NCBI GenBank assembly: GCA_020850945.1
Contig: JADZDR010000008.1
Span: forward strand, 29,776 to 93,775
DNA length: 64,000 bases
Origin: Acidimicrobiia bacterium
Lineage (GTDB): Bacteria; Actinomycetota; Acidimicrobiia; UBA2766
Direction of reading: 5' to 3'
Part shown: in pieces, positions 4,863 through 64,000 of the stretch
Layout: every line of letters starts with the position of its first letter
How positions within the stretch are numbered: position 1 is the first letter of the stretch
Made by a program: the position numbers and the translations under genes
Notes under the pieces: model-generated
The model's input: only the letters and a program-made list of their open reading frames with translations
What the model was told of the DNA's origin: nothing
Databases searched by the model: none

Positions 4863-4944
4863 GCGAGAGTGGCGGAACAGGTAGACGCGTCGGCCTTAGG
4901 AGCCGGTGCCTTCGGGCGTGTGGGTTCGAGTCCCACCTCTCGCA
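4863..4944 (+). tRNA. tRNA-Leu (anticodon TAG)
   Basis: Cloverleaf readable by eye: acceptor GCGAGAG/CTCTCGC, anticodon stem UCGGC/GCCGG with loop CUUAGGA (U33, anticodon UAG, G37), long variable arm GCCTTCGGGC, T-arm GTGGGTTCGAGTCCCAC and discriminator A. No encoded CCA. Confidence 0.85.
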
Positions 4945-4998
4945 CTCGGTGGTCGACTCACGCCCCGCCCACGTGGAGGTTGCCGGCTCACGACCGAC

Positions 4999-6553
4999 TC
5001 AGAAGGGCCCCTCGGCGAAACGGCGGAGGACGTTCTCCGTGATGCGACGCACCATCGTGCCGTCGTCCTCCTGCTCCGGCGCGCCGCCGTCGAGGCAGTC
5101 GATCCAGGCGACCGAACCCGTGCTGAACACACCCGCGCCGCTCGGAGCCCGGTGGAACGCGGCGTTGTGCTTCGTCTTGTTGCCGTTGTAGGTCAGCGGG
5201 GACTCGGCCAGGACCTCGAGCCCCGCAGGTTGCGGCACGCTCTGGAACACCCGGTCGTACTCACCCCCGACCGCAGCCGAGATCTTGTCGCCCGCCGCGA
5301 GGCCCGTGTCCGTGTAGATCCAGTGCTGCGGTGCGGTCACGACCCAGTCGGCCCGCACCCCCGCCCCTTCGTACTGGATTCCGCAGATCTCCTGCTCGGG
5401 CTTGTCCACGGGTGGAGACCGCCACTCGACCGTGACGGCACCGGGATCCGTCTTCCCGATGGGATCTTCCGTCGACCGCCAGTTCACCATGAGACGGTCG
5501 GGCCGCCCGCCGGACCCGGCCTCGAAGCGAACACGACGGTAGATGGCGTTGGCACCGAAGAAGGCGAGATGCGCCCCGGAATCACGCGCTGTCACGATCG
5601 CCTCACGCATCGTGTCCGACCAGTACTCGTCGTGGCCGAGTGTGAGGACCGCTCTCTGCTTCGAGAGGTAGTCGGGGGTGGCGTGGATATCCGTGTCGGT
5701 CACGTAGCTCAAGGGAAGGCCGAGGCTCTCGGCGAGAGTGACGAGGGGAAGTTCGATGCCGAGGAAGTCCATGCTGCCGGGGTCCTCGTAGGGCCGGTCG
5801 AAGGAGACGACCTTGGCGCGACCCTTGCGGTTCCCGTTCAAGTCCATGTAGAGGCTGTGCCCCCCCCCATCGGTTGTATGCCTGCCAGGTCGTGTTGGCG
5901 TTCACGAGGACAACCGAGTCGGTCGCAGAATCGTCACGCACCGTGAGAGGTATGTAGGACTGACCGCCGGAGCTGTCGCTCAACTTGAGCAGGTACGTGC
6001 CCGCCACCCACTCGTCGTCTATCTCGAGACGCAGGACCGACTTCCATGCCGTCTCGACCGTGTTCAGGGCCGAGATCGTCGCCTCCGCCTGGGACACGGA
6101 CGCGATCGGCTCGGACTTCCAGACCTCGCGGCCGAGGAGGCCCCCGTAGTGACCCATGCGGAACGCCTGTACCGAGAGCTCGGGGGCTGCCGTCCGCACG
6201 AAGAGAGCAATCTCCTCTCCCTGCGTCGTGCTCGGCTTCTCGGCCCATCCCACGACGGACCTGCTGTCGGTCGTGAGCTGCCACGCATCCGTCCCCGGCC
6301 GTGCGTTCTCCTCGGTGACGCGCGATGCGGCATCGGAAGGCCTCCTGCTGCGTATCGGCTTCGTGTCGATGGTGTCCGCAGGGGGGTGTTCCGGCGGCGA
6401 CGACGCCTCACGGCGGGCGAACCCCAGCGCGGCCGCGGCACCGACCGAGAGACCCGTCGCGGCTCCGAGGCGTACGAGATCGCGTCTCGACAGTGGCCGC
6501 CACCTGGGGGGCTTGGCGCTCGAGGACTCGGGATCTCGTGGGGAGTTCGGCAT
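4999..6553 (-). pseudogene. TAT-signal N,N-dimethylformamidase beta-subunit-like (DmfA2-like) protein, disrupted by a +1 frameshift in a G9/C9 homopolymer (5861-5869)
   Basis: Two overlapping minus ORFs (5603-6553 and 4999-5847) read as one protein if one G is removed from the 9-mer: ...NTTWQAYNRWGG|HSLYMDLNGNRK.... The N-terminus has a twin-arginine signal (RRDLVRLGAATGLSVGAAAALGFA). Confidence 0.6.
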
Positions 6554-10574: not shown

Positions 10575-12734
10575 TCAGCTGATCCCCAGTGCGGTGATGA
10601 CCACGTCGATGAGCTTGATCCCGATGAAGGGGGCGACGATCCCCCCGATGCCGTACACGAACAGGTTGCGGCGCAATACCTGAGCCGCCGGCAGGGCCCT
10701 GAAACTGACACCGCGCAGTGCGAGGGGGATGAGAAGGATGATCACCAAAGCGTTGAAGACGACAGCTGAGAGGATCGCCGACACCGGTGACTCGAGCCGC
10801 ATCAGATTCAGAGCGTCGAGGGCCGGGAACACGCCGACGAACATGGCGGGGATGATTGCGAAGTACTTGGCTATGTCGTTCGCGATCGAGAACGTCGTGA
10901 GCGACCCCCGCGTCATCAGCATCTGCTTGCCGATCTCGACCACGTCGATCAGCTTCGTCGGGTCGCTGTCGAGGTCGACCATGTTGGCCGCCTCTTTCGC
11001 GGCCTGCGTGCCCGAGTTCATGGCAACACCGACATCTGCCTGTGCCAACGCGGGCGCGTCGTTGGTGCCGTCACCGGTCATTGCGACCAGCTTGCCGCCC
11101 TCCTGCTCTCGACGGATGAGCCGCATCTTGTCCTCAGGGGTGGCCTCGGCGAGGTAGTCGTCGACACCTGCTTCCTCTGCAATGGCCGAGGCGGTCACCG
11201 GGTTGTCGCCCGTGATCATCACGGTCCTGATCCCCATCGCGCGGAGCTCACCGAACCGCTCGACCATGCCCTCCTTGATGACGTCCTTCAGGTGGACGAC
11301 ACCGAGCACTTCCCGGCCTTCGGCCACCACGAGGGGCGTTCCACCGTCCCGCGCGATCGAGTCGATGGTCTGGTCCATCCCGGCCGGGATCTCACCGCCC
11401 TGCTCGTCGATCCACTGTCTCACGGAGTCCGCGGCCCCCTTGCGGATGCTGCTCGCATCGAAGTCGACCCCGCTCATGCGGGTCTGCGCGCTGAACGGGA
11501 TGAACTCCGATCCCTCGGGCACCTCCTGCGAGCGGGCACCGTACACCCCCTCCGCGAGCGCCACGATCGACTTCCCCTCCGGTGTCTCGTCGGCGAGGCT
11601 CGACATCCGTGCCACTTCGGCCAGCCGCTCAACGGAGATGCCGTACATCGGGATGAGCTCTACGGCCTGGCGGTTCCCGTAGGTGATCGTGCCCGTCTTG
11701 TCGAGCAGCAGCGTCGAGACGTCTCCGGCGGCCTCCACCGCCCGACCACTCATGGCGAGGACGTTGCGCTGGACGAGTCGGTCCATGCCCGCGATGCCGA
11801 TGGCGGAGAGGAGTCCTCCGATCGTGGTCGGGATGAGGCAGACGAGGAGAGCCAGGAGGATCGTGAGGGAGATCACCTTGTCGCCGGTCGCGCCCGAGTA
11901 GATCGCGAACGGTTGGAGGGTTGCAGTCGCGAGGAGGAAGATCAGGGTCAGACCCGACAGGAGGATCGTGAGGGCGAGCTCGTTCGGTGTCTTCTGGCGC
12001 TCTGCGCCCTCGACGAGGGCGATCATGCGGTCGAGGAACGTCTCACCCGGCCTTGCCGAGATCTGCACGACGATCGCGTCGGACAGGACCCGCGTGCCCC
12101 CCGTGACGGCAGACCGGTCCCCACCCGCTTCACGTATCACGGGTGCCGACTCACCTGTGATCGCGGACTCGTCGACGGACGCGATGCCCTCGATGACGTC
12201 CCCGTCTGAAGGGATGACCTCCCCGGCGGCGACGACGACGACATCACCCACCTCCAAAGCCGTGCTCGTGGTCTGCTCGAGTGTCCCGTCGGGAAGCCTG
12301 CGCGTGGCTGTCGTCTGCTTGCGTGTGGCGCGCAGGGTGTCCGCCTGCGCCTTGCCGCGGCCTTCGGCGACGGCCTCGGCGAAGTTCGCGAACAGCACCG
12401 TGAACCAGAGCCAGAACGAGACGAGACCGACAAAGAGCGGATCACCGCCCACGAGGAACACGTCCCGTACGAACAGGAGTGTCGTCACGACACTCACGAC
12501 CTCGACTATGAAGATCACGGGGTTCGCGATCAGGGTGGTCGGCTTCAGCTTGCGGAAGCTGTCCGTCACCGCCGGCCACAGGATCTCGGGATCGAGGATC
12601 GCCCGCCTCTGGCGTCCGGTTCGCTGCGCGTGCACGGCCGCGCGCTCGCCTATTGCCGTGCCCTCTCTGCTCGCCCCGCCGGGACCGGTCTCAGGGCCCT
12701 GATCCTGGGTGTTCTGTGCGGTCTGCTCGGTCAT
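10575..12734 (-). CDS. kdpB: K+-transporting P-type ATPase subunit B
   Basis: 719 aa with P-type ATPase motifs ([22 protein letters not shown]). Confidence 0.9.
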
Positions 12735-19588: not shown

Positions 19589-19639
19589 GGGGTTGTGAGG
19601 ATCCTGCAGCGCCGCGGCGTGTGAGATCCTCACAACCCC
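19589..19639. promoter_or_regulatory. 15-bp perfect inverted repeat (GGGGTTGTGAGGATC ... GATCCTCACAACCCC) with a 21-nt spacer, in a divergent promoter region
   Basis: Read directly from the sequence. Lies between the ABC ATPase start (19526, minus) and the GGDEF-EAL gene start (19726, plus). An extra ACAACCC copy occurs just upstream. Confidence 0.5.
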
Positions 19640-28617: not shown

Positions 28618-30542
<1,925 letters not shown>

Positions 30543-32692: not shown

Positions 32693-33286
32693 TCATGACA
32701 GATCCGGGTCGAGGACGTCGACGAAGGCCGTCCCGCCCTCGAACGACACGACGAGCACGTCCGCGCCGACGTCGAACACGCGGTCGCCGACTGGGTGGGG
32801 GCGGGCGGGGAGACGCATCGGTCGACCCGCGACGTCGACCATGACGCGTCCCGGCCTCGATCCCGACACCGGGACCACCACCTTGGCGCGCCGTCCGACG
32901 AGATCGGAGTCGAGCAACTCGCTGCTCGACTCGCCTCTTCGCATGAAGCGGTACGCGGCCGAGTTGAGGACGGCGACGGCAAGGCCGACGATGACGGCGG
33001 CGACGAGACCCACCCCCGGTGACGCGTCGAGGAGGCCGAACACGAGGCCGGCTGTGCCGAAGAAGGCGAGGAAGAACACGAGGGAGCTGAACCGGAGGAA
33101 CTGGAGGATGTGGGAGACGGGACCGCCCGCCTCCGCGTCGTGGCCCACGTCGTGGCCCACGTCGTGCCCGGCGTCGCCGTGCAGGTCCCCGCCCAGATGC
33201 GCATCGTGCCCGCCGTGCCCGGCAATGAGTTGGAATGCCACGAGGCCCCACCCGACAACCGCACATACGACGTACACGTACTGCAT
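32693..33286 (-). CDS. NfeD-like membrane protein (flotillin partner)
   Basis: Starts at internal Met MQYVYVVCAVVGWGLVAF.... Has a His/Asp-rich loop, TM helices and a C-terminal OB-fold-like segment (GRRAKVVVPVSGSRPGRVMVD). Directly upstream of the flotillin gene. Confidence 0.65.
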   Translation of the reverse strand: MQYVYVVCAVVGWGLVAFQLIAGHGGHDAHLGGDLHGDAGHDVGHDVGHDAEAGGPVSHILQFLRFSSLVFFLAFFGTAGLVFGLLDASPGVGLVAAVIVGLAVAVLNSAAYRFMRRGESSSELLDSDLVGRRAKVVVPVSGSRPGRVMVDVAGRPMRLPARPHPVGDRVFDVGADVLVVSFEGGTAFVDVLDPDLS

Positions 33287-33334
33287 GACCCAGGGAGTGT
33301 ATTCGCTGCCGGAAAGGCCGGGGGCCGAGCGCGG

Positions 33335-33392
33335 CACACAGTCTGGGTACCTGAGCGGCGCTATATCGCCGCTCAGGTACCCAGACTGTGTG
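33335..33392. repeat. 58-bp perfect palindrome (26-bp arms CACACAGTCTGGGTACCTGAGCGGCG, 6-nt centre CTATAT)
   Basis: Read directly: the second arm CGCCGCTCAGGTACCCAGACTGTGTG is the exact reverse complement of the first. It lies in the divergent intergenic region between nfeD (start 33286, minus) and the 33484 plus-strand gene. Confidence 0.9.
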
Positions 33393-47289: not shown

Positions 47290-50200
47290 TCACTCCGGGT
47301 CCGCGGCCGGTTCCGCCGGCACACCGGCAACCTCGAGGTCCGCCAACAGGTCGGCGTCACCCGCCTCGCTCGTGTCGGCGGTGTCGACGGGGTCGGGACT
47401 GAAGACCTCGCGCACTCGCTCCGTGAGCTCGAGAGCGATGTCGGGATTCTCGGCAAGGAAGGCCTTGGCGTTCTCACGGCCCTGCCCGAGCTGTTCGCCC
47501 TCGTAGGTGAACCAGGCGCCGCTCTTCTGGACGAGGCCGGCGTCGACCGCCACGTCGAGAAGTGAACCCTCGCGGCTGATCCCCTTGCCGTACATGATGT
47601 CGAACTCCGCCTGCCTGAATGGCGCCGAGCAGTTTGCCACGACACAGCCCTCGGCCACGAAGGTGTGATGCTCGTCGACTTCGATATCGAAAACCTCACA
47701 TCTCTCGGAGGGAAGCACAGCTTCGATCCGTGCATAATGCAGGTCCTCGTCGAGCACGGCCCGGAGAAACTCGCTGTCGAGCGCATCGGCCAGCCGTTCG
47801 ATCCGATCTCTTCGCAGACGGCGCGCGCCGAGCACGAGCCTCAGGCTGTCACCCGCCCCCGCACCCGCTCCCAAGAGCCGGCCGACGAATGACGGCGTCA
47901 ACCCCCGCCCTCGCAGGTACGCCAAGACAGGTTCGGTCTGGGACGCGGGAAGGTAGTTCGTCTGGGAACCACGGTGCTTGCGCAACTCGGGATCCGCCAG
48001 GGACTCGACGAGCTTCGTCCCCCGCGGGCCCCACATCGGGAGGGCCTCGGCGAATCGTGTGACGTTGTCGATGCCACTCAAACGCACTTCCCAGCATGGC
48101 CGCCTCGCTTGTACCACCCGTCCCTTGATGAGGCTCGGCCGCTGACTCGTCGGGTCGTACACCCTCACCGATGTCCAAATGTCGAACCGCAGCAGGAGCC
48201 AATGAACCTGGTGGGCGAGCTGCTCTGATGTCGTCACGAATCCGCACCGGATCCCCCCGGTTTGCTCCCGACTCACGTACCCGTCCGTCTCCCAGAGGCC
48301 GAAGAGCAGGTTGCCGAGCACCTCCGCCGACACGTCGGAGGCGAAGAAGTCCGGTGGTATCCGCTTCTCGGGTGCCAGATGTCCCCAGATTCCCGCCCAA
48401 CGCACCAGCGCGAGGAGCTCGCTCTCCCTTCCAGAGCGGAAGGAGAAGCTCGTCTCGATCCCACGCCGTCTGGCCGAACAGCCGAGTGACTCGGCGATCT
48501 CGATGGCGTCCTGCTGCAACGACTCGGCCACGTTGATGAATGTCACCGGCGTCTTGCCACCCACATACCCGTCCCCGATCAGGTAGCCGAGGAGCCGGGC
48601 GTGGGCAGGGGGGACAGGCTCGGTATCACCGAACTCCCCCAAGCTGCGGGGCCGGGCAATTCGGTCACCTGCTCGCAAATCGCCGGCCGGACACCAACCC
48701 TTGTCCGTGAGGATCTTGTGGTCCGGTGTCACACGCAGGACCGTGCCATCGCGAAGTCGCAAACCGATGACGTCACGCACCCCTTGGGCGAAGCGGTTGA
48801 CGATGCGCCGCACATGCAGCTTCCCGGCCTTGTCGGCGGCAACCACGGCCTCACCCTGCTCACCTGTGACGATGTCTTCGATTCGGTGCGTCAGGCCTGT
48901 GGTCGGATCGAAGACGCGGGTACCGGCCGCGACGCACTTGTTCTTGGCGACCTTCACCCGCACCCGGTTGCCGACCGCCTCGGTGCCGACCTTGATCGAG
49001 TCGATGCGGCGCACGTCGAGACGCACCGACGAATAGAACTTGAGGGCTCGCCCACCCGATGTCGTCTCGGGTGAGTTGTGCACCATGACGCCGTCCACGA
49101 AGTAGTTGTGGGTCCCCTCGACCTCCAGATCGAAGCGATGCGTGTGCTTCCCGTTGGGCGGACCGACCCGGATGTCTGTTATCGGCATCGGCACCAGAAC
49201 CCGGCGCATCGGCGTGAAGATGGGCTGAACCGCGAACCGCCCTCGGAACTTCGGGAGCAGCTTGTAGTCCATCGACGGATGGACGAAGGGTGCGATCAGA
49301 GCGTGGAACGCCTCGGTCGCAGCCTTCGGGAACTGCAGGACCGCCTTGCGCGACTCGCCTCGGTAAACCAGCTTCGCCTGGATTCCCCAGGTGTCCGCGA
49401 GCAAGTCGACGAGGCGCCGGCGTGTGGCGGGGTCCATGGCTTCGATGCAGATCTCGCATCTGCCGCTCCCCCCCGCCGTTCGCGCCTGTTTCCCTTCGGT
49501 ACGGAGCTGGAAGGTGCCGTCATCCATGTACCAGAGGGCCAAGGCCAACGGCGTGAGCGCCTTCAGGTACTCGTCGCTGAACACCTTCTTGCCGCCGACG
49601 TACACGGACCTGCGAAGTTCCGCCAGCTCAGGAAGCGGACGCATGTCGAAGAAGATCGCTGCCTCTGCGTTGGTCGAGCGAGAAGTACCGATGTTCGCGA
49701 AGAGGGATGCCTTCCATTCCGCATATTCGGTCTGCTTCTTGCCATGACCCCACCTGAAGCGGGCTCCATGCCCACTGCGTGTGGGGGACAGAGCCCCGTC
49801 ACCCATCAGGGACCCGAGGATGACCTCCCGCTGGAAATCGGAGAGATGCTCTGGCACCTCTTGAAGCACCCGATCGCCAACCGAGAGCGCCTGTGCCTCC
49901 TTCCAGCCTCTCGGGGTGCGAATCCTGTGATTCGCCGTGCAGGAGAACTGGGCTCGACCGTTGCCGCCACCTCTCGCAACGCTGAAGCGGTAGAACTCGT
50001 CGGTCCGACCGTTGTCGAACCAGCCCACCACCCGCTTGGGTACCACGGCATCTTTGTCCGCGTCGTATGAGAGCACCTCGACCGGGAGTTTCTGGTTGAC
50101 GATCTTGCCGATCTTCTCCTGCGTTCCGTCCGCCAAAGTCACTCGCGTGCTGTAGTCGAAGCAGCCGAAGAGCACTCCCACCTTCTCACGGAGCTGGTTG

Positions 50201-50871
50201 ATGAAGATCATGATCGTGTTCGTCTTGGAGATCGTGCCCGAGAGCTTGCGCAGCGCCTGACTCATGAGTCGTGCCTGCAAACCGACGTGCGTGTCGCCCA
50301 TCTCGCCGTCGAGCTCGGCCTTGGGCACGAGGGCGGCGACCGAGTCGATCACGATCACGTCGAGGGCGCCCGATCGGATCAGCATGTCGGCGATCTCGAG
50401 CGCCTGCTCCCCCGTGTCGGGCTGGGAGATGTAGAGCTCGTCGATGTCGACGCCGAGGTTGCGGGAGTAGACGGGGTCGAGGGCGTGCTCGGCGTCGATG
50501 AACGCGCAGACTCCCCCGTTGCGCTGCGCCTCGGCGATCACGTGCAGGGCGAGCGACGTCTTCCCGCTGCTCTCGGGCCCGTACACCTCGACGATGCGTC
50601 CCCGCGGCAGGCCGCCGATGCCCAACGCGAGGTCGAGCGAGAGGGCACCGGTCGACACGACACCCTGTTCCTGCTTGAACGTGTCGTCCCCGAGCTTCAT
50701 GAGGGCACCCTTGCCGAACTGGCGCTCGATCTGGCTCACCGCCATGCCGATCGCCTTCTCGCGGGTGCCGTTCGAGTCCGGTCCGCCCCCTCGCCCCGAG
50801 ATCGGGGTCACCTTCGCCACGTTCCCCTTCGCGCCGCCCTTCGTGTTGCCCTTCGACGTGATCTGCGCCAT
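47290..50871 (-). CDS. recA: recombinase RecA precursor containing two inteins (mature RecA about 395 aa)
   Basis: 1193 codons. The exteins are 236 aa (with Walker A GPESSGKT), 46 aa and 113 aa, and are colinear with RecA. Two in-frame inserts of 363 and 435 aa carry intein and LAGLIDADG signatures. The N-terminal start (ATG 50871) is uncertain by about 20-30 codons. Confidence 0.85.
47632..48936 (-). mobile_element. RecA intein 2 (435 aa) with LAGLIDADG homing endonuclease domain, inserted KVAKNK|C...CVVAN|CSAPFRQ
   Basis: N-terminal Cys, block [18 protein letters not shown]-like [10 protein letters not shown] and [12 protein letters not shown]-terminal Asn followed by Cys. The penultimate residue is Ala rather than His. 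Confidence 0.8.
49075..50163 (-). mobile_element. RecA intein 1 (363 aa) with LAGLIDADG homing endonuclease domain, inserted KVGVLFG|C...VMVHN|SPETTSGG
   Basis: N-terminal Cys, block [18 protein letters not shown]-like [11 protein letters not shown] and [11 protein letters not shown]-terminal His-Asn followed by Ser. Confidence 0.8.
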
Positions 50872-50913
50872 GGTCCGTCCCTCTCTGCCTCGTCCTCTGC
50901 CTCCGGGTCTGTC

Positions 50914-50952
50914 CCGACTCGCCTTCCCGACTCGCCTTCTCGACTCGCCTCG
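50914..50952. repeat. 3 x 13-bp tandem direct repeat (CCGACTCGCCTTC x2, TCGACTCGCCTCG) in the recA leader
   Basis: Read directly. Lies 43-81 nt upstream of the annotated recA ATG. Confidence 0.8.
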
Positions 50953-51049
50953 GAGACCGTACCGGCGGGTTGTGACACAAAATCTCTCGGCACGGAATGT
51001 CACACCTGGAATTCCAGCCATGATATTCCGGACGTGCCGGGAGACTCTA

Positions 51050-51064
51050 TCGAACGCATGTTCG
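51050..51064. promoter_or_regulatory. LexA SOS box TCGAACGCATGTTCG upstream of recA
   Basis: Close match to the consensus TCGAAC-N4-GTTCGA, about 180 nt upstream of the recA start on the recA side of the intergenic region. Confidence 0.7.
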
Positions 51065-51103
51065 CCCGGCAAGGATCCCGGAGCGGAGCCGGGCCGAGTC
51101 CGG

Positions 51104-51682
51104 TCAGGTCTGGAGGGGGAACGTGTCGATCGAGACGTAGCGGGCACCGCTCGACTCGAGGCGTGACTCCATGAGGGTGACCTCCTCCACCACGCACGAC
51201 ACGTCGGGTGGGTCGATCGCGGCCACGACGGTCGACACGTCACCGGGATCACGCAAGCGGCCGATCGTGAGATGGGGCCGGAACTCCCGTGCCTCGGGCT
51301 CGAAGCCGAGCTTGGCCGTCTGGTCGCTCACCGAGGTCGAGAGCGCGGCGAGCCGGCTCTCGGGGTCGTCGACTCCGACCCACACGACCCGCGCGCGCCG
51401 CGGCGAGGGGAAGGCTCCGGAGCCCCCGAAGGTGATCCGGAAGGGGCGGATGCGGCCGGCCGCGAACGCGCACGCGAGCCTGATCCTGTCGACCAGGTCC
51501 GATTCGACATGGCCGAGGAACTGCAGGGTGAGATGCCATGCCTCCGGCTCGATCCACCGCCCCGTGGGCAGGTCCGGCAGCATCCCGAGGCCGGCGGCGA
51601 GCTCCTCGCGCACATGCCGCCCCGGGACCGCAGCGACGAAGAGGCGGATCCGGTCACCCACTGGGCGGCCCTGTCCCTGCAT
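51104..51682 (-). CDS. thpR: RNA 2',3'-cyclic phosphodiesterase (2H phosphoesterase, LigT/ThpR family)
   Basis: Two H-x-T/S-x motifs (HLTLQFLG and HLTIGRL). The start is uncertain; a GTG near 51661 is possible because the ATG overlaps the cinA 3' end. Confidence 0.75.
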
Positions 51683-55225: not shown

Positions 55226-56203
55226 TCAGAGCCAGCCCTTCCTGCGGAACAGGGCGTAGAGCGCGGCGGCGCAGACGACGATGAGGCCCACGCTCACGAG
55301 CCAGCCCGCCGTCCGGCCCTCACCCGGGTACGGGACGTTCATGCCGTAGTAGCCGGTGATCAGAGTCGGCACGGCGATGATCGCGGCCCAGCTCGTGACC
55401 TTCTTCATGATCAGGTTCTGCCTGTACTCGTGCAGCGTGAGGTTCGTCTCGACGATCGTCGTGACGAGGTCGCGGAGGGCGTCCGTCGACTCCACGACCC
55501 GCAGGATGTGGTCGTAAAGGTCCTGGTAGTAGGGGTAGAGCTCCTCGTGCACGGTCGTGTGCTCACGCCGCAGGAGGCCGCTCACGACCTCGCGCAGCGG
55601 TGCGGCGAGCCGGTGGAACCTCACGAGGGACTGCCGCACGTGGAACCAGCGGCGCTGCTGCTCGGGACTGAGGGGGGTCCCGGCGAAGATGAGGTCGCTG
55701 ACCTCGTCGTAGTAGTCGTCGAAGTCGGCGAGGACGTCGAAGTAGGCGTCGATCACGGTATCGAGGAGGCTGTACAGCAGGAACCCCACGCCGTGGCGGG
55801 TCATGTCGGTGGCGCCGTCCCAGCGGTTCGTGACCTCCCCGATCGGGAACTCCTCGTTCGCCCGCACGGTCACGAGCCACCGGTCGTTCACGAACGCGTC
55901 GATCTCGGTCGTGACGAGGCGCTCCGCCCCGCTGTCGAACCGGATCGCATGGCAGGCGAGGAAGGCGTGCGTGGGATAGAGGTCGAGCTTCGGTCTCTGG
56001 TGGGGATCGAGGGCGTTCTCCACGGCGAGCTCGTGCAGTCCGAGCTCGGCGGCGAGCTCGTGCAGCTCCGCCGCCGACGGCGCACACAGGTCGATCCAGA
56101 CGACGGTGTCGGACTCCCCGAGGCGCTCGGAGACCTCCCCCATCGGGAAGCCTTCTGCCTCGAGGACCCCGCCTCTGTATGCACGCGTGTGGGCTGTTCC
56201 CAT
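55226..56203 (-). CDS. corA: CorA family magnesium/cobalt transporter
   Basis: 325 aa with two C-terminal TM helices and the YGMNV (GMN) signature. Confidence 0.85.
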   Translation of the reverse strand: MGTAHTRAYRGGVLEAEGFPMGEVSERLGESDTVVWIDLCAPSAAELHELAAELGLHELAVENALDPHQRPKLDLYPTHAFLACHAIRFDSGAERLVTTEIDAFVNDRWLVTVRANEEFPIGEVTNRWDGATDMTRHGVGFLLYSLLDTVIDAYFDVLADFDDYYDEVSDLIFAGTPLSPEQQRRWFHVRQSLVRFHRLAAPLREVVSGLLRREHTTVHEELYPYYQDLYDHILRVVESTDALRDLVTTIVETNLTLHEYRQNLIMKKVTSWAAIIAVPTLITGYYGMNVPYPGEGRTAGWLVSVGLIVVCAAALYALFRRKGWL

Positions 56204-56260
56204 CCGGCCTCCTCGCCCAAGTTACCGCCGTGCGCCGGACTGGGCGGGTCGCTTGGGTGG

Positions 56261-56286
56261 GGTTTGTTGCGCATGCGCAACAAACC
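56261..56286. promoter_or_regulatory. 26-bp perfect palindrome GGTTTGTTGCGCATGCGCAACAAACC (extends imperfectly to about 38 bp)
   Basis: Read directly; it is self-complementary. Lies 58-83 nt upstream of corA (minus) and about 140 nt upstream of the 56425 plus-strand gene. Confidence 0.85.
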
Positions 56287-56424
56287 GCACCCAACTCCGT
56301 CACTTCTGCCCACATCGTGGCGCGAGCAGATCACGGCCAGTTGGGAACCGTGAGCTCCATCGGCGCGTCAGACCCATCGAAACACGGTCCGGATCTCGAT
56401 GCCGGCCACCAAGGGAGGAACACG

Positions 56425-57967: not shown

Positions 57968-60601
57968 TCAGATCCCCAGCCGCGACCGGTACCCGTCGAG
58001 ATCCTCGGGTGCCATGAGGACCTTGCGTGCCTTCGAGCCCTCCGACGGACCCACGACACCGTGCTGCTCCAGCAGATCCATGATCCGCCCCGCCCGCGCG
58101 AACCCGACACGGAGCTTGCGCTGGAGCATCGACGTCGATCCGAGCCGGCTCGAGACGACGAGCTCCATCGCCGCCCCGAGCAGGGCGTCGGACTCCTCGT
58201 CGACGTCACCCCGCACGGCGTCCACCGAGAGATCCCCCGAGAAGACGACATCGGGTTCGGTCGTCTCCTCCGGTCCCGGAGCCGGTCCCGTCGCGGCCGG
58301 ACCGGCTACCGTCCCGGGATCGGGCACGGCGGGGACAGGGGTCGCCTCCCCGTCGAGGTCCGCCGGGACCGCGACCGCGGGCGCCTCGGCCGCGTTCGTC
58401 TCCCTGTGCCGCTCGGCCTGGGCGCGCCAGTGCGACACGATGCCGGCGACCTCCTCCTCCGAGACGAACGAAGCCTGGATGCGCTCGCACTGCGAAGCGG
58501 AGCTGCCCAGATAGAGAAGGTCACCCTGGCCGACGAGCTTCTCCGCTCCCGCCTGGTCGAGGATCACACGGCTGTCCGTCACGGTCCGCACCTTGAACGC
58601 CATGCGGGTGGGGATGTTCGCCTTGATCACGCCCGTGATCACGTTCACGGACGGGCGTTGCGTCGCGATCACGAGGTGGATGCCGACGGCACGGGCCATC
58701 TGCGTGATGCGGGCTATCGATTCCTCGACGTTGCGGGGCGCGACGAGCATGAGGTCGGCGAGCTCGTCGACCACGACGAGGATGTAGGGGAGTGTGTGGG
58801 GCGCCTCACCGTCGTCGGCCTTGATCTCGCCCCGCCCGACACCCTGGTTGTAGGACACGACGTCGCGGCTCCCCGCAGCCTGGAGGATGTCGTAGCGGCG
58901 GTCCATCTCCTGCACAGCCCACTCGAGTGCGTCGGCGGCCTTCTTCGGGTTCGTGACCACCCCGGTCAGCAGGTGGGGGATGCGCCCGTACCTGCCGAGC
59001 TCGACGCGCTTGGGATCGATGAGGATCATGCGCACCTCGGACGGCCGGGTCCGGCAGAGGATCGACGTGAGTATCGAGTTGATGCTCGACGACTTGCCCG
59101 AGCCCGTCGCGCCCGCGATCAGGAGGTGGGGCATGTCGGCGATGTCGACCATGACCGGCCTGCCGCTGATGTCCTTGCCGAGTGCCACCTGGAGGGGTCG
59201 GGTCGCGGCCCGCGCCTGCTTCGAGCGGAGGATGTCGCCGAGGGTCACCATCTGGCGTACGGCGTTGGGCACCTCGAGGCCGATCGCGGACCGGCCTGGG
59301 ATCGGTGCGAGGATGCGCACGTCGGGTGTGGCGAGGGCATAGCAGATGTCCGGTGTGAGCTTGAGGAGGGCGTTCACCTTCACACCCTGGGCGAGCTCGA
59401 CCTCGTAGCGGGTCACAGTGGGCCCGGCGACGTGACCCACGACCTCGGCCCCGACGTTGAACTCGTCGAGCGTCGCCTTGATCACCTCGGATCTCGACTC
59501 GGTGGCGGCAGTGTCGACCTTGCGTTCGGGACTGGAGCGCAACAGGTCGAGTGCCGGCAGGACGTATATCTCGGCATCGGCGGGCTTGGGCTCGCGGAGG
59601 CGGAGCTGCTCGGGTGCATGTTGCCGCCCCCCGCCGGATGCCTGCCGGCTCGCCGTGTGCGAGCCGCCGCCTCGCGCATGCGCATCCGCGTCGACCTCCG
59701 CGTCGACCGGAGGCACCGTGACCTCGGCTGCCTGGTCGTACAGGGTGGTGTCGGGGACCGAGCCCGCCGCCTGGCCCCCGGCAGCCCCCGGGGGCCGGGC
59801 CGGGACCGCCGTGCGCTTCGGACCGCTCGCCGTGTGACGGGGCCTCTCGTCTGCGTCAGGCGGCGGAGGCTCCCCGGCGGAGGCGGGAGGCTCGAGGAAC
59901 GACGCCGTCACCACGCGCCAGGCCGACCGCGTGTGGGCGGCGATGCCCCGCAGGCTCTGACCGGTCGCAACGAGGATTCCGACGAGGACGGCACCGCCCA
60001 GGATCACGGCCGCGCCTGCCCGACCGAGGGCGGCATCGAGGGGAACGGAGAGGACCGCGCCCACGTACCCGCCGTGTTCGCGGATCTCCGCGAACGGGGC
60101 GTCGAGGGGCACCGCACCACCGGCGAGGTGGATGAGGCCCAGCACGGCCGCCACGGCGAGGACGACCCCGATCACGCCGAGCGTGCGCACACGGTCTCCG
60201 CGCGTGAAGGCGAGGCCGAGCCCTCCCCCCACGAGAACCAGGGGGAGCCAGACCGCCCCCTTCCCACCCACTGCCCTCGTTCCGGTCTCGAGCGCGTCCC
60301 CGACCGGGCCTGCCCCGTTCGCCCACACGGCGAGTGCGAGGAGGACCCCGAGGACGACGAGGCTGATACCGAGGATGTCGGCCATGTGGCGCTCGACGAG
60401 GTCGGTGGTGGCGTGCCGGGGCGCGTGCCCCTTGCGGGGGGCGGACTTCGGGCCACGTCGGGCGGCGTCACGCGACCTCTTCGACGTCTGCGCCGCACGC
60501 GGTCCCGATCGAGGGGCGGGCTTGCCTCCGGCGCGCGTCTTCGACGTGGACGTGGCGGAGCGGGACTTGGACTTCGTGGACCGTCGGGTGGCGGCGGGCA
60601 C
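57968..60601 (-). CDS. ftsK: DNA translocase FtsK/SpoIIIE
   Basis: FtsK core (Walker A GATGSGKSS, DELADLM). N-terminal basic tail plus four TM helices. The proposed start is GTG at 60601 with RBS AGGAGA. The track ORF extends to 60856 by reading through an intergenic tandem repeat. Confidence 0.8.
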   Translation of the reverse strand: MPAATRRSTKSKSRSATSTSKTRAGGKPAPRSGPRAAQTSKRSRDAARRGPKSAPRKGHAPRHATTDLVERHMADILGISLVVLGVLLALAVWANGAGPVGDALETGTRAVGGKGAVWLPLVLVGGGLGLAFTRGDRVRTLGVIGVVLAVAAVLGLIHLAGGAVPLDAPFAEIREHGGYVGAVLSVPLDAALGRAGAAVILGGAVLVGILVATGQSLRGIAAHTRSAWRVVTASFLEPPASAGEPPPPDADERPRHTASGPKRTAVPARPPGAAGGQAAGSVPDTTLYDQAAEVTVPPVDAEVDADAHARGGGSHTASRQASGGGRQHAPEQLRLREPKPADAEIYVLPALDLLRSSPERKVDTAATESRSEVIKATLDEFNVGAEVVGHVAGPTVTRYEVELAQGVKVNALLKLTPDICYALATPDVRILAPIPGRSAIGLEVPNAVRQMVTLGDILRSKQARAATRPLQVALGKDISGRPVMVDIADMPHLLIAGATGSGKSSSINSILTSILCRTRPSEVRMILIDPKRVELGRYGRIPHLLTGVVTNPKKAADALEWAVQEMDRRYDILQAAGSRDVVSYNQGVGRGEIKADDGEAPHTLPYILVVVDELADLMLVAPRNVEESIARITQMARAVGIHLVIATQRPSVNVITGVIKANIPTRMAFKVRTVTDSRVILDQAGAEKLVGQGDLLYLGSSASQCERIQASFVSEEEVAGIVSHWRAQAERHRETNAAEAPAVAVPADLDGEATPVPAVPDPGTVAGPAATGPAPGPEETTEPDVVFSGDLSVDAVRGDVDEESDALLGAAMELVVSSRLGSTSMLQRKLRVGFARAGRIMDLLEQHGVVGPSEGSKARKVLMAPEDLDGYRSRLGI

Positions 60602-60741
60602 TGGTTCTCCTGGGATGCGCTTCGTTGCGGGACGTGTGCCGTCCCGTTCGCGCTCCCACCCGTTCCGCCCGGGGAGACGCTGGCCCCGAAGGTACCACCG
60701 ACGGCGTCCCGTGGGTGGGTGCCCCCCGTCACGGCGGGTTC

Positions 60742-60865
60742 CCACTGTCACGTGGGCGTACTGAACCACAACCACCGTGGTTGAATACGCCCACGTGGGT
60801 TGTCCACTGTCACGTGGGCGTACTGAGCCACAACCACCGTGGTTGAATACGCCCACGTGGGGGGC
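60742..60865. repeat. 2 x 62-bp tandem direct repeat; each unit contains a 12-bp inverted repeat CACGTGGGCGTA ... TACGCCCACGTG around an inner near-palindrome CAACCACCGTGGTTG
   Basis: Read directly. The units are CCACTGTCACGTGGGCGTACTGA(A/G)CCACAACCACCGTGGTTGAATACGCCCACGTGGG..., with 1 mismatch between copies. The repeat starts 9 nt after the rnj stop and ends about 140 nt upstream of ftsK. Confidence 0.85.
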
Positions 60866-60873
60866 AGGGGGGA

Positions 60874-62544
60874 TCAGACCTCTACGACCAGCGGGAACAC
60901 GATGGGACGGCGCTCCGTCCGCTTGCGGGCGAAGCGGCTCAGCGCCTGACGCACATGCCGGTTCAGGGTCGTGAGGTCGAGGGCGTCCTCCTCGGCGGCG
61001 GCGTCGATCGACGCGATCACGTGCTCGATCGCCTCCTCGATGAACTTCTCCTCCTCCTCGGCCCGCAGGAAGCCCTTCGACATGATCTCGGGGCCACTCA
61101 CGACCTCGCCTGTCCTGCTGTCGACGCAGACGACACAGACGAGCGTGCCGTCGTCCGCGAGGCGGCGCCGCTCACGCAGAACACCACCGGTCACGTCGCC
61201 CACCCCGGCTCCGTCCACGTACACGTAGCCTGCCGGCGCCTCCGTGTCGGCGAAGTCGACGCCGTCGTCTCCGATCTCGAGCACGTCCCCGTCCTCGGCG
61301 ACGAGGATGCTGTCGTCGGGGATGCCGAGTCGCGTCGCGAGGCGCGAATGCACGACGAGATGGCGGTACTCGCCGTGGACCGGCACGAAGAACTCGGGGC
61401 GGACGAGGGCGAGCATGAGCTCGAGCTCGGGGGCGCCGGCGTGGCCCGACACGTGCACGTCGGCGACTCCGGCGTGCACCACCTCGGCGCCCGCCCGGAT
61501 CAGGCCGTCGATGGCGCGGTGAACGTTCATCTCGTTGCCGGGTATCGCCGTCGCCGAGATGATGACCGCATCCTGCTCGCCGACGGTGACCCACTTGTGC
61601 TCACCCGACGCCATGAGCGAGAGAGCCGCGAGCGGCTCACCCTGGGCGCCGGTGCAGAGGACACAGACGTCGCGGGGATCGAGCTTGGCGATCTCGGAGA
61701 TGTCGACGATGTCGTCGGCGGCCACGTCGAGGAGGCCCTTCTCCCGCGCGAGACGCGTGTTCGACTGCATCGAGCGGCCGAGGAAGGCGATGCGGCGGCC
61801 ACTCTCGACTGCGGCGTCGCAGATCTGCTGGACCCGGTGGAGATGGCTCGCGAAGCACGCACAGATGATGCGCTTCTCCTCGTGACGGTGGAAGAGGTCG
61901 GCCAGCCACTCGCCCACGAGGGACTCGGACCGCGTGAACTCGCGGTGCTCGGCGTTGGTCGAGTCGGAGAGGAGGAGTCGGACGCCTTCGGCACCGAGGG
62001 TGCCGAACCGCGGGAGGTCGGTGAGGCGGCCGTCGACGGGCGTCTGGTCGAGCTTGAAGTCGCCCGTGTGGACGATGACCCCCTGGGGTGTGCGGAATGC
62101 GAGCCCGACCGCGTGCGGAGTCGAGTGCGTGACGGCGATCGTCTCGAAGTCGAACGGCCCGACCTGCACACGGTCTCCGTCCGCGAAGACCCGCAGCTCG
62201 GCCCGGTCGGACACACCGGCCTCGTCGAGTTTGTTCGCGAGCAGGCCGAGCGTCAGATCCGTCCCGTAGATCGGTACAGGCGCGTACAGCTCCTTGAGGA
62301 GGAACGCGACACCACCGATGTGGTCCTCGTGCCCGTGCGTGAGGATCACCGCCTCGAGGTCGTCGGCCCGATCGAGGATCCAGCGCAGGTCGGGCAGGAC
62401 GAGATCCACCCCCGGCATGTCCTCCGTCGGGAACATGAGTCCGCAGTCGACGACGAGGAGGCGGCCCTCGACCTCGAGACAGAAGCAGTTGCGGCCTATC
62501 TCACCGAGACCGCCGAGGAACACGATGCGGACGGGTGCCGTCAC
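60874..62544 (-). CDS. rnj: ribonuclease J
   Basis: 556 aa with a metallo-beta-lactamase HxHxDH motif (THGHEDHIGG), beta-CASP and an RNase J C-terminal domain. Confidence 0.9.
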   Translation of the reverse strand: MTAPVRIVFLGGLGEIGRNCFCLEVEGRLLVVDCGLMFPTEDMPGVDLVLPDLRWILDRADDLEAVILTHGHEDHIGGVAFLLKELYAPVPIYGTDLTLGLLANKLDEAGVSDRAELRVFADGDRVQVGPFDFETIAVTHSTPHAVGLAFRTPQGVIVHTGDFKLDQTPVDGRLTDLPRFGTLGAEGVRLLLSDSTNAEHREFTRSESLVGEWLADLFHRHEEKRIICACFASHLHRVQQICDAAVESGRRIAFLGRSMQSNTRLAREKGLLDVAADDIVDISEIAKLDPRDVCVLCTGAQGEPLAALSLMASGEHKWVTVGEQDAVIISATAIPGNEMNVHRAIDGLIRAGAEVVHAGVADVHVSGHAGAPELELMLALVRPEFFVPVHGEYRHLVVHSRLATRLGIPDDSILVAEDGDVLEIGDDGVDFADTEAPAGYVYVDGAGVGDVTGGVLRERRRLADDGTLVCVVCVDSRTGEVVSGPEIMSKGFLRAEEEEKFIEEAIEHVIASIDAAAEEDALDLTTLNRHVRQALSRFARKRTERRPIVFPLVVEV

Positions 62545-63434
62545 GAGACCCCACGGTACCGGGAGACGACCGCCTGCAGTCGCGTGGCGAGGTCGGGCTC
62601 GATCGGGGCGAGCGGTGGGCGGGGCGGCCCGGCCGGGAGGCCGAGCATCTCGCAGGCCGCCTTCACGGGGATCGGCGACGAGTCCTCGAAGAGGATGCGG
62701 AAGAGGGGCAGGAGATCGTCATGTGTCTTGCGGGCCGACTCGACGTCGCCTGCCTTGTAGGCCCTGATCATCTCCGAGATCTGCACGCCTGCGACGTGCG
62801 ACGCGACGGAGATCACACCCCGTGCGCCGACGCTCAGGAAGGGCAGCGTCTGCGCGTCGTCACCCGAGTACACCTCGAACGCGTCGCCGCACACGGCCCG
62901 CACCGACCCCACGTGCACGCTCGATCCCGTCGCATCCTTCACACCGATGATGCGGGGGTGGGCGGCGAGGCGCTCGTACGTGTCGAGTTCGATCCCGCAA
63001 CCCGTGCGCCCCGGGATGTCGTAGAGGATCACGGGCAGGTCGGTCGCGTCCGCGATCGCCCTGAAATGGATCTCGAGTCCCCGCTGGGGCGGCCGGTTGT
63101 AGTACGGCGTGACGGCGAGGATCCCGTCGACGCCGATCTCGGTCGCTGCCGTCGTGAGGCGAACCGAGGCGGCCGTGTCGTAGCTCGACGTGCCGGCGAG
63201 GACCTTGCCCGCACCCGCACCCGCAGCCGCGTCGACGACCGCCCGGAACAGCTCGGCCTTCTCGTCGAAGGACAGGGTCGGGGACTCCCCGGTCGTCCCC
63301 GACGCGAGAACCGCGTCGGACCCCGACTCGAGGAGGGCACGGGCGAGACGGGCGGCGCCGTCGACGTCGAGCGACAGGTCCTCCCCGAACGGTGTGATCA
63401 TGGCGGTGACGACGTCACCGAACGTGCCTTCCAT
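62541..63434 (-). CDS. dapA: 4-hydroxy-tetrahydrodipicolinate synthase
   Basis: Starts MEGTFGDVVTAMITPF... with DapA motifs (GTTGES, the Schiff-base Lys region VKDATG). Its stop overlaps the rnj start (ATGA). Confidence 0.85.
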   Translation of the reverse strand: MEGTFGDVVTAMITPFGEDLSLDVDGAARLARALLESGSDAVLASGTTGESPTLSFDEKAELFRAVVDAAAGAGAGKVLAGTSSYDTAASVRLTTAATEIGVDGILAVTPYYNRPPQRGLEIHFRAIADATDLPVILYDIPGRTGCGIELDTYERLAAHPRIIGVKDATGSSVHVGSVRAVCGDAFEVYSGDDAQTLPFLSVGARGVISVASHVAGVQISEMIRAYKAGDVESARKTHDDLLPLFRILFEDSSPIPVKAACEMLGLPAGPPRPPLAPIEPDLATRLQAVVSRYRGVS

Positions 63435-63636
63435 GAGCGGCAGTCTATCTCCGCGCTCGAATCGGCACCCGCTACTCACTGCGACATCAACGGGAACCTG
63501 ACATCCTCGTCCTAAACCCAACGGGGGGTATGGCCGAAGCACAACAAGACAGAATCGCACACCGTCAACAGCAGTGCGATAGTCGCCTTGCGGCATCAGG
63601 AGCGGCTCGATCGTCTGCCCGAGCTGGGAACAAGAC

Positions 63637-64000
63637 TTGGCCGGGACTCCAAGACCCCTCGACAGGCTCCGGGCCCCTCCGGACAGAGCCTCGAAGACGA
63701 CAACCGCTCCGTCGCTCGACACCATCGCCGCGCTCGTCCTGCAGGCACGCGATGGCGACGAGCAATGCTTCGCCGACCTCTTCGCTCTGCTATTCGATCT
63801 CGTCTACTCCACGGCATATTGCGTGCTCGAGGACAGCGGGGAGGCCAGCGATGTCGTGCAAGAGGCATTCCTGGCTGCCTGGCAGAACCTTGCGAGTCTC
63901 GACGAGCCGAGAGCGTTCCGCAGCTGGCTCGTGCAGATCACCCGCAACCTCGCAATCGACCGTACCCGCAAACGCTCCTTCCGCGATCGAGCCATGGACG
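63637..64000 (+). CDS. ECF-type sigma-70 family RNA polymerase sigma factor (5' partial in window; start uncertain)
   Basis: Frame open from 63583 to the window end. Region 2 signatures (DGDEQCFADLF...VQEAFLAAWQNLASL...FRSWLVQITRNLAIDRTRKR). The first plausible in-frame start is TTG at 63637. Confidence 0.6.
   Translation, partial: MAGTPRPLDRLRAPPDRASKTTTAPSLDTIAALVLQARDGDEQCFADLFALLFDLVYSTAYCVLEDSGEASDVVQEAFLAAWQNLASLDEPRAFRSWLVQITRNLAIDRTRKRSFRDRAMD

Follow-up and report, generated by a model that had tools for sequence, protein, structure and literature searches.

A palindromic repeat, duplicated in tandem between rnj and ftsK and dispersed among lineages of uncultured Acidimicrobiia

Hairpin array in the rnj-ftsK spacer

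The repeat described here lies between rnj, the gene for ribonuclease J (RNase J), and ftsK in an Acidimicrobiia bacterium (GenBank assembly GCA_020850945.1). The DNA analyzed, referred to throughout as the window, comprises the 64,000 nucleotides of contig JADZDR010000008.1 from position 29,776 to position 93,775 of the forward strand, renumbered from 1. Both genes occupy the minus strand, and the spacer between them holds two direct copies of a long hairpin that appears again, outside the window, after unrelated genes. The repeat is a lineage-specific, copied palindrome, non-coding and duplicated in tandem, and the nearest relative lacks it in the orthologous spacer. Table 1 lists the features of the locus in the order of transcription.

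Table 1. Features of the rnj-ftsK locus, in window coordinates
Feature	Position	Strand	Remarks
rnj (RNase J), upstream gene	60874..62544	-	Open reading frame (ORF); stop codon 60876-60874
C-run CCCCCCTGCCCCCC, 5' flank of the element, from rnj stop to hairpin A	60860..60873	-	Polar flank
Tandem array, two 62-bp units	60742..60861	-	Unit is hairpin plus 13-nt tail ACAGTGGRMAACC (sense strand); Tandem Repeats Finder
Hairpin A, W-type, nearest the rnj stop codon	60811..60859	-	Inverted repeat I8; model R1 72.6 bits, E 2.5e-19
Hairpin B, W-type	60749..60797	-	Inverted repeat I3; model R1 74.9 bits
Variable spacer, hairpin B to conserved ftsK block; includes second 13-nt tail	60701..60748	-	Without counterpart in ATB1
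Conserved ftsK promoter/leader block, outside the repeat	60602..60700	-	Near-identical to ATB1 L001 5713-5825; remaining spacer unalignable
ftsK, true extent	57968..60601	-	GTG start 60601-60599; Shine-Dalgarno AGGAGA 60611-60606

Tandem Repeats Finder reports a single array in the spacer, with period 62, 1.9 copies, 98% matches and a score of 233, and so bears out the 62-bp tandem repeat proposed in an initial annotation made from the sequence. The single mismatch counted there between the units holds for the first 58 bp; the full 62-bp units (60742-60803 and 60804-60865) differ at four positions, 24, 59, 60 and 62. Each unit is one long, bipartite, imperfect hairpin with 21-nt arms, two mismatches and a 7-nt loop, built from a perfect 12-bp outer stem, a 3-nt stretch that contains both mismatches, and a 6-bp inner stem, AACCAC/GTGGTT. 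Hairpin A reads CACGTGGGCGTA-TTC-AACCAC-GGTGGTT-GTGGCT-CAG-TACGCCCACGTG, and hairpin B differs from it by one base, within the inner stem. The 12-nt arms are 25 nt apart, rather than 23 as first counted. Arm CACGTGGGCGTA has four exact occurrences, arranged as two inverted pairs (at 60749, 60786(-), 60811 and 60848(-)); with one mismatch allowed, five matches are found against 0.27 expected, a number reached in 0 of 100 shuffles. The sequence CAACCACCGTGGTTG, found at 60769 and 60831, had been taken for a second palindrome nested in the first. It is better seen as an extension of the same hairpin: copies elsewhere keep the inner stem and differ in the loop, so CAACCACCGTGGTTG is peculiar to the loop of the window's copies.

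The folding that the initial annotation had proposed gives a very stable hairpin for each unit (RNA dG about -34 kcal/mol). For hairpin B the RNA fold has dG -33.9 kcal/mol, with z -7.8, and the DNA fold -19.7 kcal/mol; the whole array folds as RNA at -78 kcal/mol, with z -5.95. Read along the minus strand, the order is rnj stop codon, C-rich tract CCCCCCUGCCCCCC, hairpin A, hairpin B and ftsK leader, and the sense-strand tails of the hairpins begin ACAGUGG. A G-rich tract had been placed between the hairpins and ftsK on this transcript, which is mistaken: the tract is the plus-strand view of the C-run and is situated toward rnj. The stretch 60700-60735 was considered as a decayed third unit and rejected as not significant, since 31 of 500 shuffles score equally high.

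The longest ORF for ftsK, 57968..60856, starts inside the repeats, and here the initial annotation was right that the ORF caller over-extends the gene by about 85 codons. The conserved start, GTG 60601, lies 85 codons downstream of the ORF start. The FtsK N-terminus VPAAT is common to the window and to its closest relative, the metagenome-assembled genome (MAG) "Actinobacteria bacterium ATB1" (L001; assembly QWHP01; RNase J 85% identical), where it has its own AGGAG, and similarity is lost upstream of it. Because this start is kept while everything upstream differs, we place the ftsK start at GTG 60601 and regard the repeats as non-coding. The annotation is corrected accordingly: ftsK is shorter by 85 codons, and the spacer is repeat DNA, neither coding sequence nor a dedicated regulator.

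ATB1 keeps the adjacency of rnj and ftsK as well as the ftsK leader, and has no repeat in the spacer, either in the MAG or in eight independent Logan contigs. In MAG and Logan contigs alike its spacer is short, about 160 nt, and it shows no significant fold (z +0.39). The absence of the repeat from this orthologous spacer marks the element as a gain in the window's lineage, where it was recently duplicated in tandem. Another Acidimicrobiia MAG (L002; RNase J 71% identical) carries an unrelated tandem repeat directly after rnj, at 5733-5845, with 3.9 copies of a 29-bp unit, CGGGGCCCGAGCGGCCCTTGAGCGGAGAG, and a 98% match; the spacer 3' of rnj seems prone to gaining repeats.

Copies after the stop codons of unrelated genes

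The initial annotation had suggested a search for a dispersed family resembling the repetitive extragenic palindromes (REPs) of other bacteria, and the search was positive: the hairpin follows the stop codons of unrelated genes. The exact-arm pattern CACGTGGGCGTA-N20-30-TACGCCCACGTG has no match in 185,579 GTDB species genomes and none in viral contigs, and matches three metagenome contigs of 1 kb each. These three hold four hairpins in all, whose stems are identical to those of the window and whose 7-nt loops all differ (alignment A1). L022 has two adjacent hairpins with different loops, the nearer one 20 nt past the stop of a Pup-ligase gene. The single hairpin of L023 lies 15 nt past the stop of a ferredoxin gene and 45 nt before the next co-directional gene, and that of L024, accompanied by partial arm copies, 31 nt past the stop of the gene for an unknown protein. 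By BLAST, the hairpin is the sole similarity of these contigs to the window. Since the same hairpin stands after the stops of unrelated genes, the element did not evolve for rnj or for ftsK.

A covariance model, R1, was built from the six copies of this type, designated W. Over the 64-kb window it finds only the two known copies. In ATB1 it finds a variant at L001 3017-3065, between an MlaD-like gene and dapA, with 34.9 bits and E 8e-8. The ATB1-type hairpin, GACGTGGGCGGAT...ATCCGCCCACGTG, occurs also in L033, whose PafA is 95% identical to that of L022, at 10810-10858, 38 nt past the pafA stop. A third variant, GTTCTGGGCGCGC...GCGCGCCCAGGTC, has three copies within 21 kb of the STL-ACT9 MAG (L034; assembly JAXLRM01), at 2310, 9092 and 11389, after the stops of trmI, a proteasome gene and pafA; in STL-ACT9 the RNase J at the rnj locus (L010) is 67% identical to that of the window. 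The 3' flank of pafA is thus a single orthologous site occupied in three lineages. In three further Acidimicrobiia lineages (L036-L040; PafA 81-86% identical) the pafA flanks have neither a copy nor a hairpin, and the family is therefore confined to a sub-clade. Models R1 and R2, run over the window and all related loci, find no copies beyond those listed, and the sample of the family comprises 11 copies at nine loci in three lineages (alignment A3).

The arms differ by lineage, with GACGTGGGYGGAT in ATB1-like genomes (type A) and GTTCTGGGCGCGC in STL-ACT9 (type S), while types W, A and S share a TGGGCG/CGCCCA core and the same bipartite architecture. Members of the family are 48-49 nt long, with an outer stem of 12-13 bp, a short imperfect stretch, an inner stem of 5-6 bp and a variable loop of about 7 nt. 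Their RNA folds range from -30 to -39 kcal/mol, with z from -6 to -10. In alignment A3, 91% of cells are paired, compared with 28-48% when the partners are slid, and in 7 of the 18 pairs both partners have changed, one position being U-A, C-G or G-C depending on the copy. The covariation score is reached by 0 of 500 shuffles, with the qualification that the sequences are related copies and that the structure was derived from the same copies. RNAalifold predicts the same helix independently, with nine compensated pairs. These statistics show that the palindrome is maintained, and they fit a folded RNA, a single-stranded DNA (ssDNA) structure and a symmetric duplex site alike.

All nine loci lie 14-66 nt past a stop codon, between co-directional or convergent genes (the latter at three of the nine), and no locus is flanked by divergent genes. 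A C-run stands directly 5' of the hairpin when the sense strand of the upstream gene is read, with CCCC within 10 nt at seven loci and CCC at all nine; against a background of 3.6% the enrichment has P of about 3e-9. Because the C-run is always on the 5' side of the sense strand, the element is polar and keeps a constant orientation relative to the upstream gene. Such polarity could come from a role at the level of RNA or from a strand-specific preference for insertion beside C-runs. Mismatches read as G·U versus A·C favor the sense strand by roughly 5 to 1, but the cases are too few, and not independent, to be taken as a strand preference.

Partial, single-arm copies such as CCCACGTGGGCAT and TGGGCGCGCC adjoin full hairpins at L024 18-44 and at L034 11363-11372, 11451-11459 and about 2275-2290, and the combinations form nested palindromes of larger size. 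These fragments could be what is left of earlier copies, or copying itself could generate them. Seven Logan contigs (L025-L028 and L030-L032), each assembled from a different sequencing run, all start at the same base, equivalent to L001 3028, which lies inside the ATB1-type hairpin upstream of dapA. Such a systematic assembly break would be expected if that genome held the element in repeated or polymorphic form.

A probable REP-like family and its alternatives

We interpret the two units as members of a dispersed family of small, non-coding palindromes that is REP-like in a broad sense and specific to a sub-clade of uncultured Acidimicrobiia; once transcribed, the element probably acts as a barrier or attenuator at the 3' end, and we put the probability of this reading at about 70%. 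The window's lineage gained a copy downstream of rnj, and this copy was later duplicated in tandem, with a 62-bp period and a single difference over 58 bp. The element would be transcribed at the 3' end of the rnj mRNA, where folding models predict two very stable stem-loops of about -34 kcal/mol each. By analogy with other stem-loop repeats, these most likely would hinder 3'-to-5' exonucleolytic decay of the rnj mRNA and would pause or attenuate read-through toward the ftsK promoter region. It is conceivable that the short C-run helps Rho to load. The uniformity of copies within a genome, together with arms that differ between lineages, points to active copying, to gene conversion or to a factor that recognizes the sequence. 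Candidates for the agent of spread and uniformity are a RAYT-like (REP-associated tyrosine transposase) or other ssDNA transposase that prefers C-run targets, gene conversion, and a sequence-specific binding factor.

Several observations weigh against this reading. The 64-kb window has only one locus, and the other W-type copies stand on 1-kb contigs that are not tied to the window's genome. No transposase was found by Pfam among the approximately 50 window proteins, nor among the called genes of the L033 and L034 flanks, and no target-site duplications or direct repeats flank any copy. The canonical REP tag, GT[AG]G or CGTC, is absent from the flanks of all copies. A terminator scan of 60300-61200 on both strands returned no site, and as there is no U-tract, termination activity is doubtful. 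The suggestion that mRNA is stabilized comes from analogy, the symmetric covariation would fit a dimeric DNA-binding protein equally well, and a two-copy tandem in a MAG assembled from short reads could be a mis-assembly.

The initial interpretation, partly supported by these results, had considered a tandem factor-independent terminator or RNA-stability element, a duplicated operator, and a small structured RNA. An effect of the hairpins on termination or stability is plausible as a consequence of the element, but a canonical factor-independent terminator would have a U-tract, which is missing here. That the structure evolved in place, as a terminator, attenuator or stability element dedicated to rnj or to the ftsK leader or both, is very improbable. 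The array does sit exactly between the rnj stop and the ftsK promoter/leader, and its fold is very stable, yet the dispersed copies after unrelated genes largely refute this explanation, and the closest relative lacks the element in spite of its kept ftsK leader. We give little more credit to an artefact of short-read assembly, with a single unit in the organism. The window does come from a MAG, and repeats disturb assembly, as seen in the seven of eight Logan contigs shown for the ATB1-like locus that break inside that lineage's hairpin; the units, however, differ at one base and have different 3' flanks, and two hairpins with different loops stand side by side in L022 as well, an independent contig. 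A coding role as an N-terminal extension of FtsK can for practical purposes be dismissed. Although the frame open at GTG 60856 runs on across the repeats, ATB1 has nothing equivalent to the extension and its FtsK begins at the same VPAAT behind its own Shine-Dalgarno sequence, unrelated genes have the same DNA after their stop codons, and long spurious ORFs are common at 68% G+C. For a small structured RNA, no Rfam family matches: a search of the whole window at gathering thresholds returned tRNA only, and a permissive search gave only sub-threshold matches to hairpins of the miRNA-precursor type, of at most 24 bits against thresholds of 70-100.

Two further explanations attribute the palindrome to DNA-level processes, and we hold both to be improbable. 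The units might be duplex sites for a dimeric protein, a regulator or one of nucleoid or segregation type, that binds a palindrome containing CACGTG, which would make the two units a double operator ahead of ftsK. The symmetry is perfect, CCCACGTGGG is itself a 10-bp palindrome, the symmetric compensatory changes do not separate a hairpin from a dimer site, and the putative ftsK -10 lies about 55-180 nt downstream of the units. An operator is nevertheless disfavored by the location of all nine loci 3' of genes, three of them between convergent genes and none in a divergent promoter region, by conserved half-sites that a variable center splits over 49 bp, by the one-sided C-run that makes the element polar, and by the S-type variant of STL-ACT9, which lacks CACGTG. 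Nor does the element resemble parS, GTTTCACGTGAAAC, and the GGGNAGGG in the G-run that resembles an FtsK-orienting polar sequence (KOPS) is at chance level, with 20 matches against 14 expected and no strand skew. The other explanation is a miniature inverted-repeat transposable element (MITE) with an incidental hairpin and no host function, on whose terminal inverted repeats a DDE transposase would act to move it. It draws on the inverted 21-nt arms, the dispersal of copies and the partial arm copies that adjoin full ones (L024 18-44; L034 11363-11372 and 11451-11459). Yet no target-site duplication surrounds any copy, 49 nt is below the typical size of a MITE, no related insertion sequence with these ends was seen, pairing is kept across lineages by compensatory changes, and the copies lie strictly 3' of genes in constant orientation. 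Likeness to parS or attC was also rejected on reading the sequence, as the cores do not match, and the KOPS-like GGGCAGGG in the G-run beside ftsK was set aside for its chance frequency and absence of strand skew.

A REP-like family remains the preferred reading, and its nearest parallels are the REPs and bacterial interspersed mosaic elements (BIMEs) of Enterobacteria and Pseudomonas, and the GTAG- and CGTC-tagged REP superfamilies (Di Nocera et al. 2013, PMC3733652), a survey that includes no Actinobacteria. Like them, the element described here is a short, dispersed, extragenic, imperfect palindrome, lineage- or species-specific, often clustered, mostly 3' of coding regions and plausibly transcribed as an RNA hairpin. 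Stem-loop repeat families, REPs among them, are concentrated in the spacers that follow coding regions and separate unidirectional or convergent genes, and have been proposed as mRNA stabilizers or terminators (PMC3733652, PMC1590033); an effect as a 3'-end barrier or attenuator has been reported or proposed for enterobacterial REPs and for other stem-loop repeats. The differences are of size, tag and arrangement. The window element has 49 nt and a bipartite stem of about 19 bp, compared with 20-40 bp and stems of 5-13 bp in REPs, and its units stand in direct tandem, not as head-to-head or tail-to-tail dimers. A canonical REP is defined by an unpaired GT[AG]G or CGTC tetranucleotide at the foot of its stem (PMC3733652, PMC6006769). 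The present family has the stem-loop palindrome and, at nine of nine loci, the location 3' of an ORF, but not the unpaired foot tag, in place of which it has a polar flanking C-run; the W-type copies have GTGG, but only within the paired arm, and the S-type copies lack it. The family is accordingly no member of the canonical REP superfamilies. Copy numbers per genome, three in 21 kb of one MAG (L034) and one locus in the window, refer to partial genomes only.

With the REPIN-RAYT system (Bertels and Rainey 2011, PMC3116915; Ton-Hoang et al./Quentin et al. 2018, PMC6006769) the family shares copies that are uniform within a genome and differ between lineages, and the occupation of the pafA 3' site in three lineages is the pattern described for vertically inherited REPIN populations. 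The arms of the window element, however, are not themselves REP palindromes, each 21-nt arm showing by reading at most 4 bp of self-pairing (GTGG/CCAC), so that the element is no REPIN in the strict sense of a long hairpin made by two inverted, individually palindromic REPs. Such systems have a single-copy Y1 (HUH) transposase gene that the repeats flank, the REPtron; no RAYT (Y1_Tnp) gene occurs among the roughly 50 window proteins or the called genes of L033 and L034. The Bor, Ype, Efa, ERIC and NEMIS repeats (Petrillo et al. 2006, PMC1590033) are likewise repeated intergenic stem-loops near coding 3' ends, co-transcribed and proposed to stabilize the upstream mRNA. They are unrelated in sequence and belong to a different phylum, and ERIC and NEMIS have 100-150 bp.

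Intrinsic terminators resemble the element as G+C-rich hairpins soon after a stop codon, but the window element has no U-tract, and has a C-run before the hairpin where a terminator has a U-run after it. Hairpin terminators without a U-tract have been proposed for high-GC Actinobacteria; identical sequence at unrelated loci implies copying rather than terminators that evolved independently. The mycobacterial interspersed repetitive units (MIRUs), a type of variable-number tandem repeat (VNTR), are also tandem repeats, of 40-100 bp, in spacers between co-directional actinobacterial genes, and variation in copy number is likely in both. MIRU units lack a long palindrome and probably carry small coupled ORFs, while the window unit is a hairpin and its single copies are dispersed.

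The element thus belongs to a known kind, the lineage-specific dispersed palindromic repeat, and is somewhat unusual in its bipartite 49-nt hairpin, its polar C-run and its three variants that diverge together at the pafA 3' site. As a more tentative, rather unlikely extension of the REP-like reading, the family might represent a first REPIN-like system of the Actinomycetota, a polar element with copies uniform per genome and co-diverging between lineages, serviced by a putative dedicated, lineage-specific protein. Candidates for that protein are a domesticated HUH/Y1 or other ssDNA enzyme that inserts 3' of C-runs, or an RNA- or DNA-binding factor that would use the element as a sequence-specific signal, for 3' ends or for termination, in organisms without U-tract terminators. 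A search of the literature did not find the arm sequence or REP/REPIN families of Actinobacteria or Acidimicrobiia, a result limited to the literature searched and no proof of novelty. Within that limit, this palindromic repeat family of uncultured Acidimicrobiia, with three lineage variants, is not previously described. Such repeats break short-read assemblies and yield strain markers of VNTR type, and they can insulate neighboring genes by stabilizing the upstream mRNA or by attenuating read-through. Constant polarity and uniformity within lineages point to a mechanism of copying or recognition that can be tested; the biology is otherwise as expected of REP-like elements, and the surprise is moderate.

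Neighboring genes and other features of the window

NCBI entry MCC7075823.1, "ribonuclease J [Acidimicrobiia bacterium]", matches the rnj product with 100% identity, and the ftsK product has the Pfam domains FtsK_4TM, alpha, SpoIIIE and gamma. The leader block of ftsK was found only in the window and at ATB1-like loci, and not at other Acidimicrobiia loci. It contains TGGTACCTT (60697-60689), a possible extended -10 that reads TGGTAYCTT across the window and ATB1; a scan for consensus sigma-70 promoters found nothing. The block also contains a small hairpin, GGGACG-GCACA-CGTCCC (60645-60629), which is conserved and has a loop that differs between the window and ATB1.

On the other side of rnj, the dapA ORF (62541-63725, minus strand) is 97 codons too long at its 5' end. 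ATB1 shares the start at ATG 63434, and in the long ORF the Pfam DHDPS domain begins at residue 102. Upstream of dapA the synteny is unlike that of ATB1, as the window has neither the MlaD-like gene nor the hairpin there.

Three other palindromes occur in the window. A near-perfect 58-bp palindrome at 33335-33392, CACACAGTCTGGGTACCTGAGCGGCGCTA|TATCGCCGCTCAGGTACCCAGACTGTGTG, has 29-nt arms that are 97% complementary with no spacer, and is followed by a G-run, GGGTTTGGGGGGAGGG. It is apparently in a divergent intergenic region, between ORFs without Pfam matches (32693-33288 on the minus strand and a plus-strand ORF from after 33388), and its sequence is unrelated to the rnj element (R1 15 bits only). 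A 42-bp palindrome at 56253-56294, TTGGGTGGGGTTTGTTGCGCATGCGCAACAAACCGCACCCAA, precedes the minus-strand gene corA, whose ATG is at 56203, by about 50 nt and may be a leader or operator of this Mg2+ transporter gene. A perfect 15-nt inverted repeat at 19589-19639, GGGGTTGTGAGGATC ... GATCCTCACAACCCC, with arms 21 nt apart, lies where long ORFs for an ABC-transporter ATPase (minus strand) and a PAS-GGDEF-EAL protein (plus strand) overlap, probably in the divergent intergenic region of those two genes.

A single RNA gene was found in the window, for tRNA-Leu with anticodon TAG, at 4863-4945 on the plus strand, located in the 277-nt gap between the gene for an HD-PAS protein and a DMFA2_C-domain gene. 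The recA ORF (47290-51252, minus strand) encodes 1320 residues, with LAGLIDADG_2 at residues 475-649 and Intein_splicing plus LAGLIDADG_3 at 786-1207, and appears to contain two inteins between the N- and C-terminal parts of RecA.

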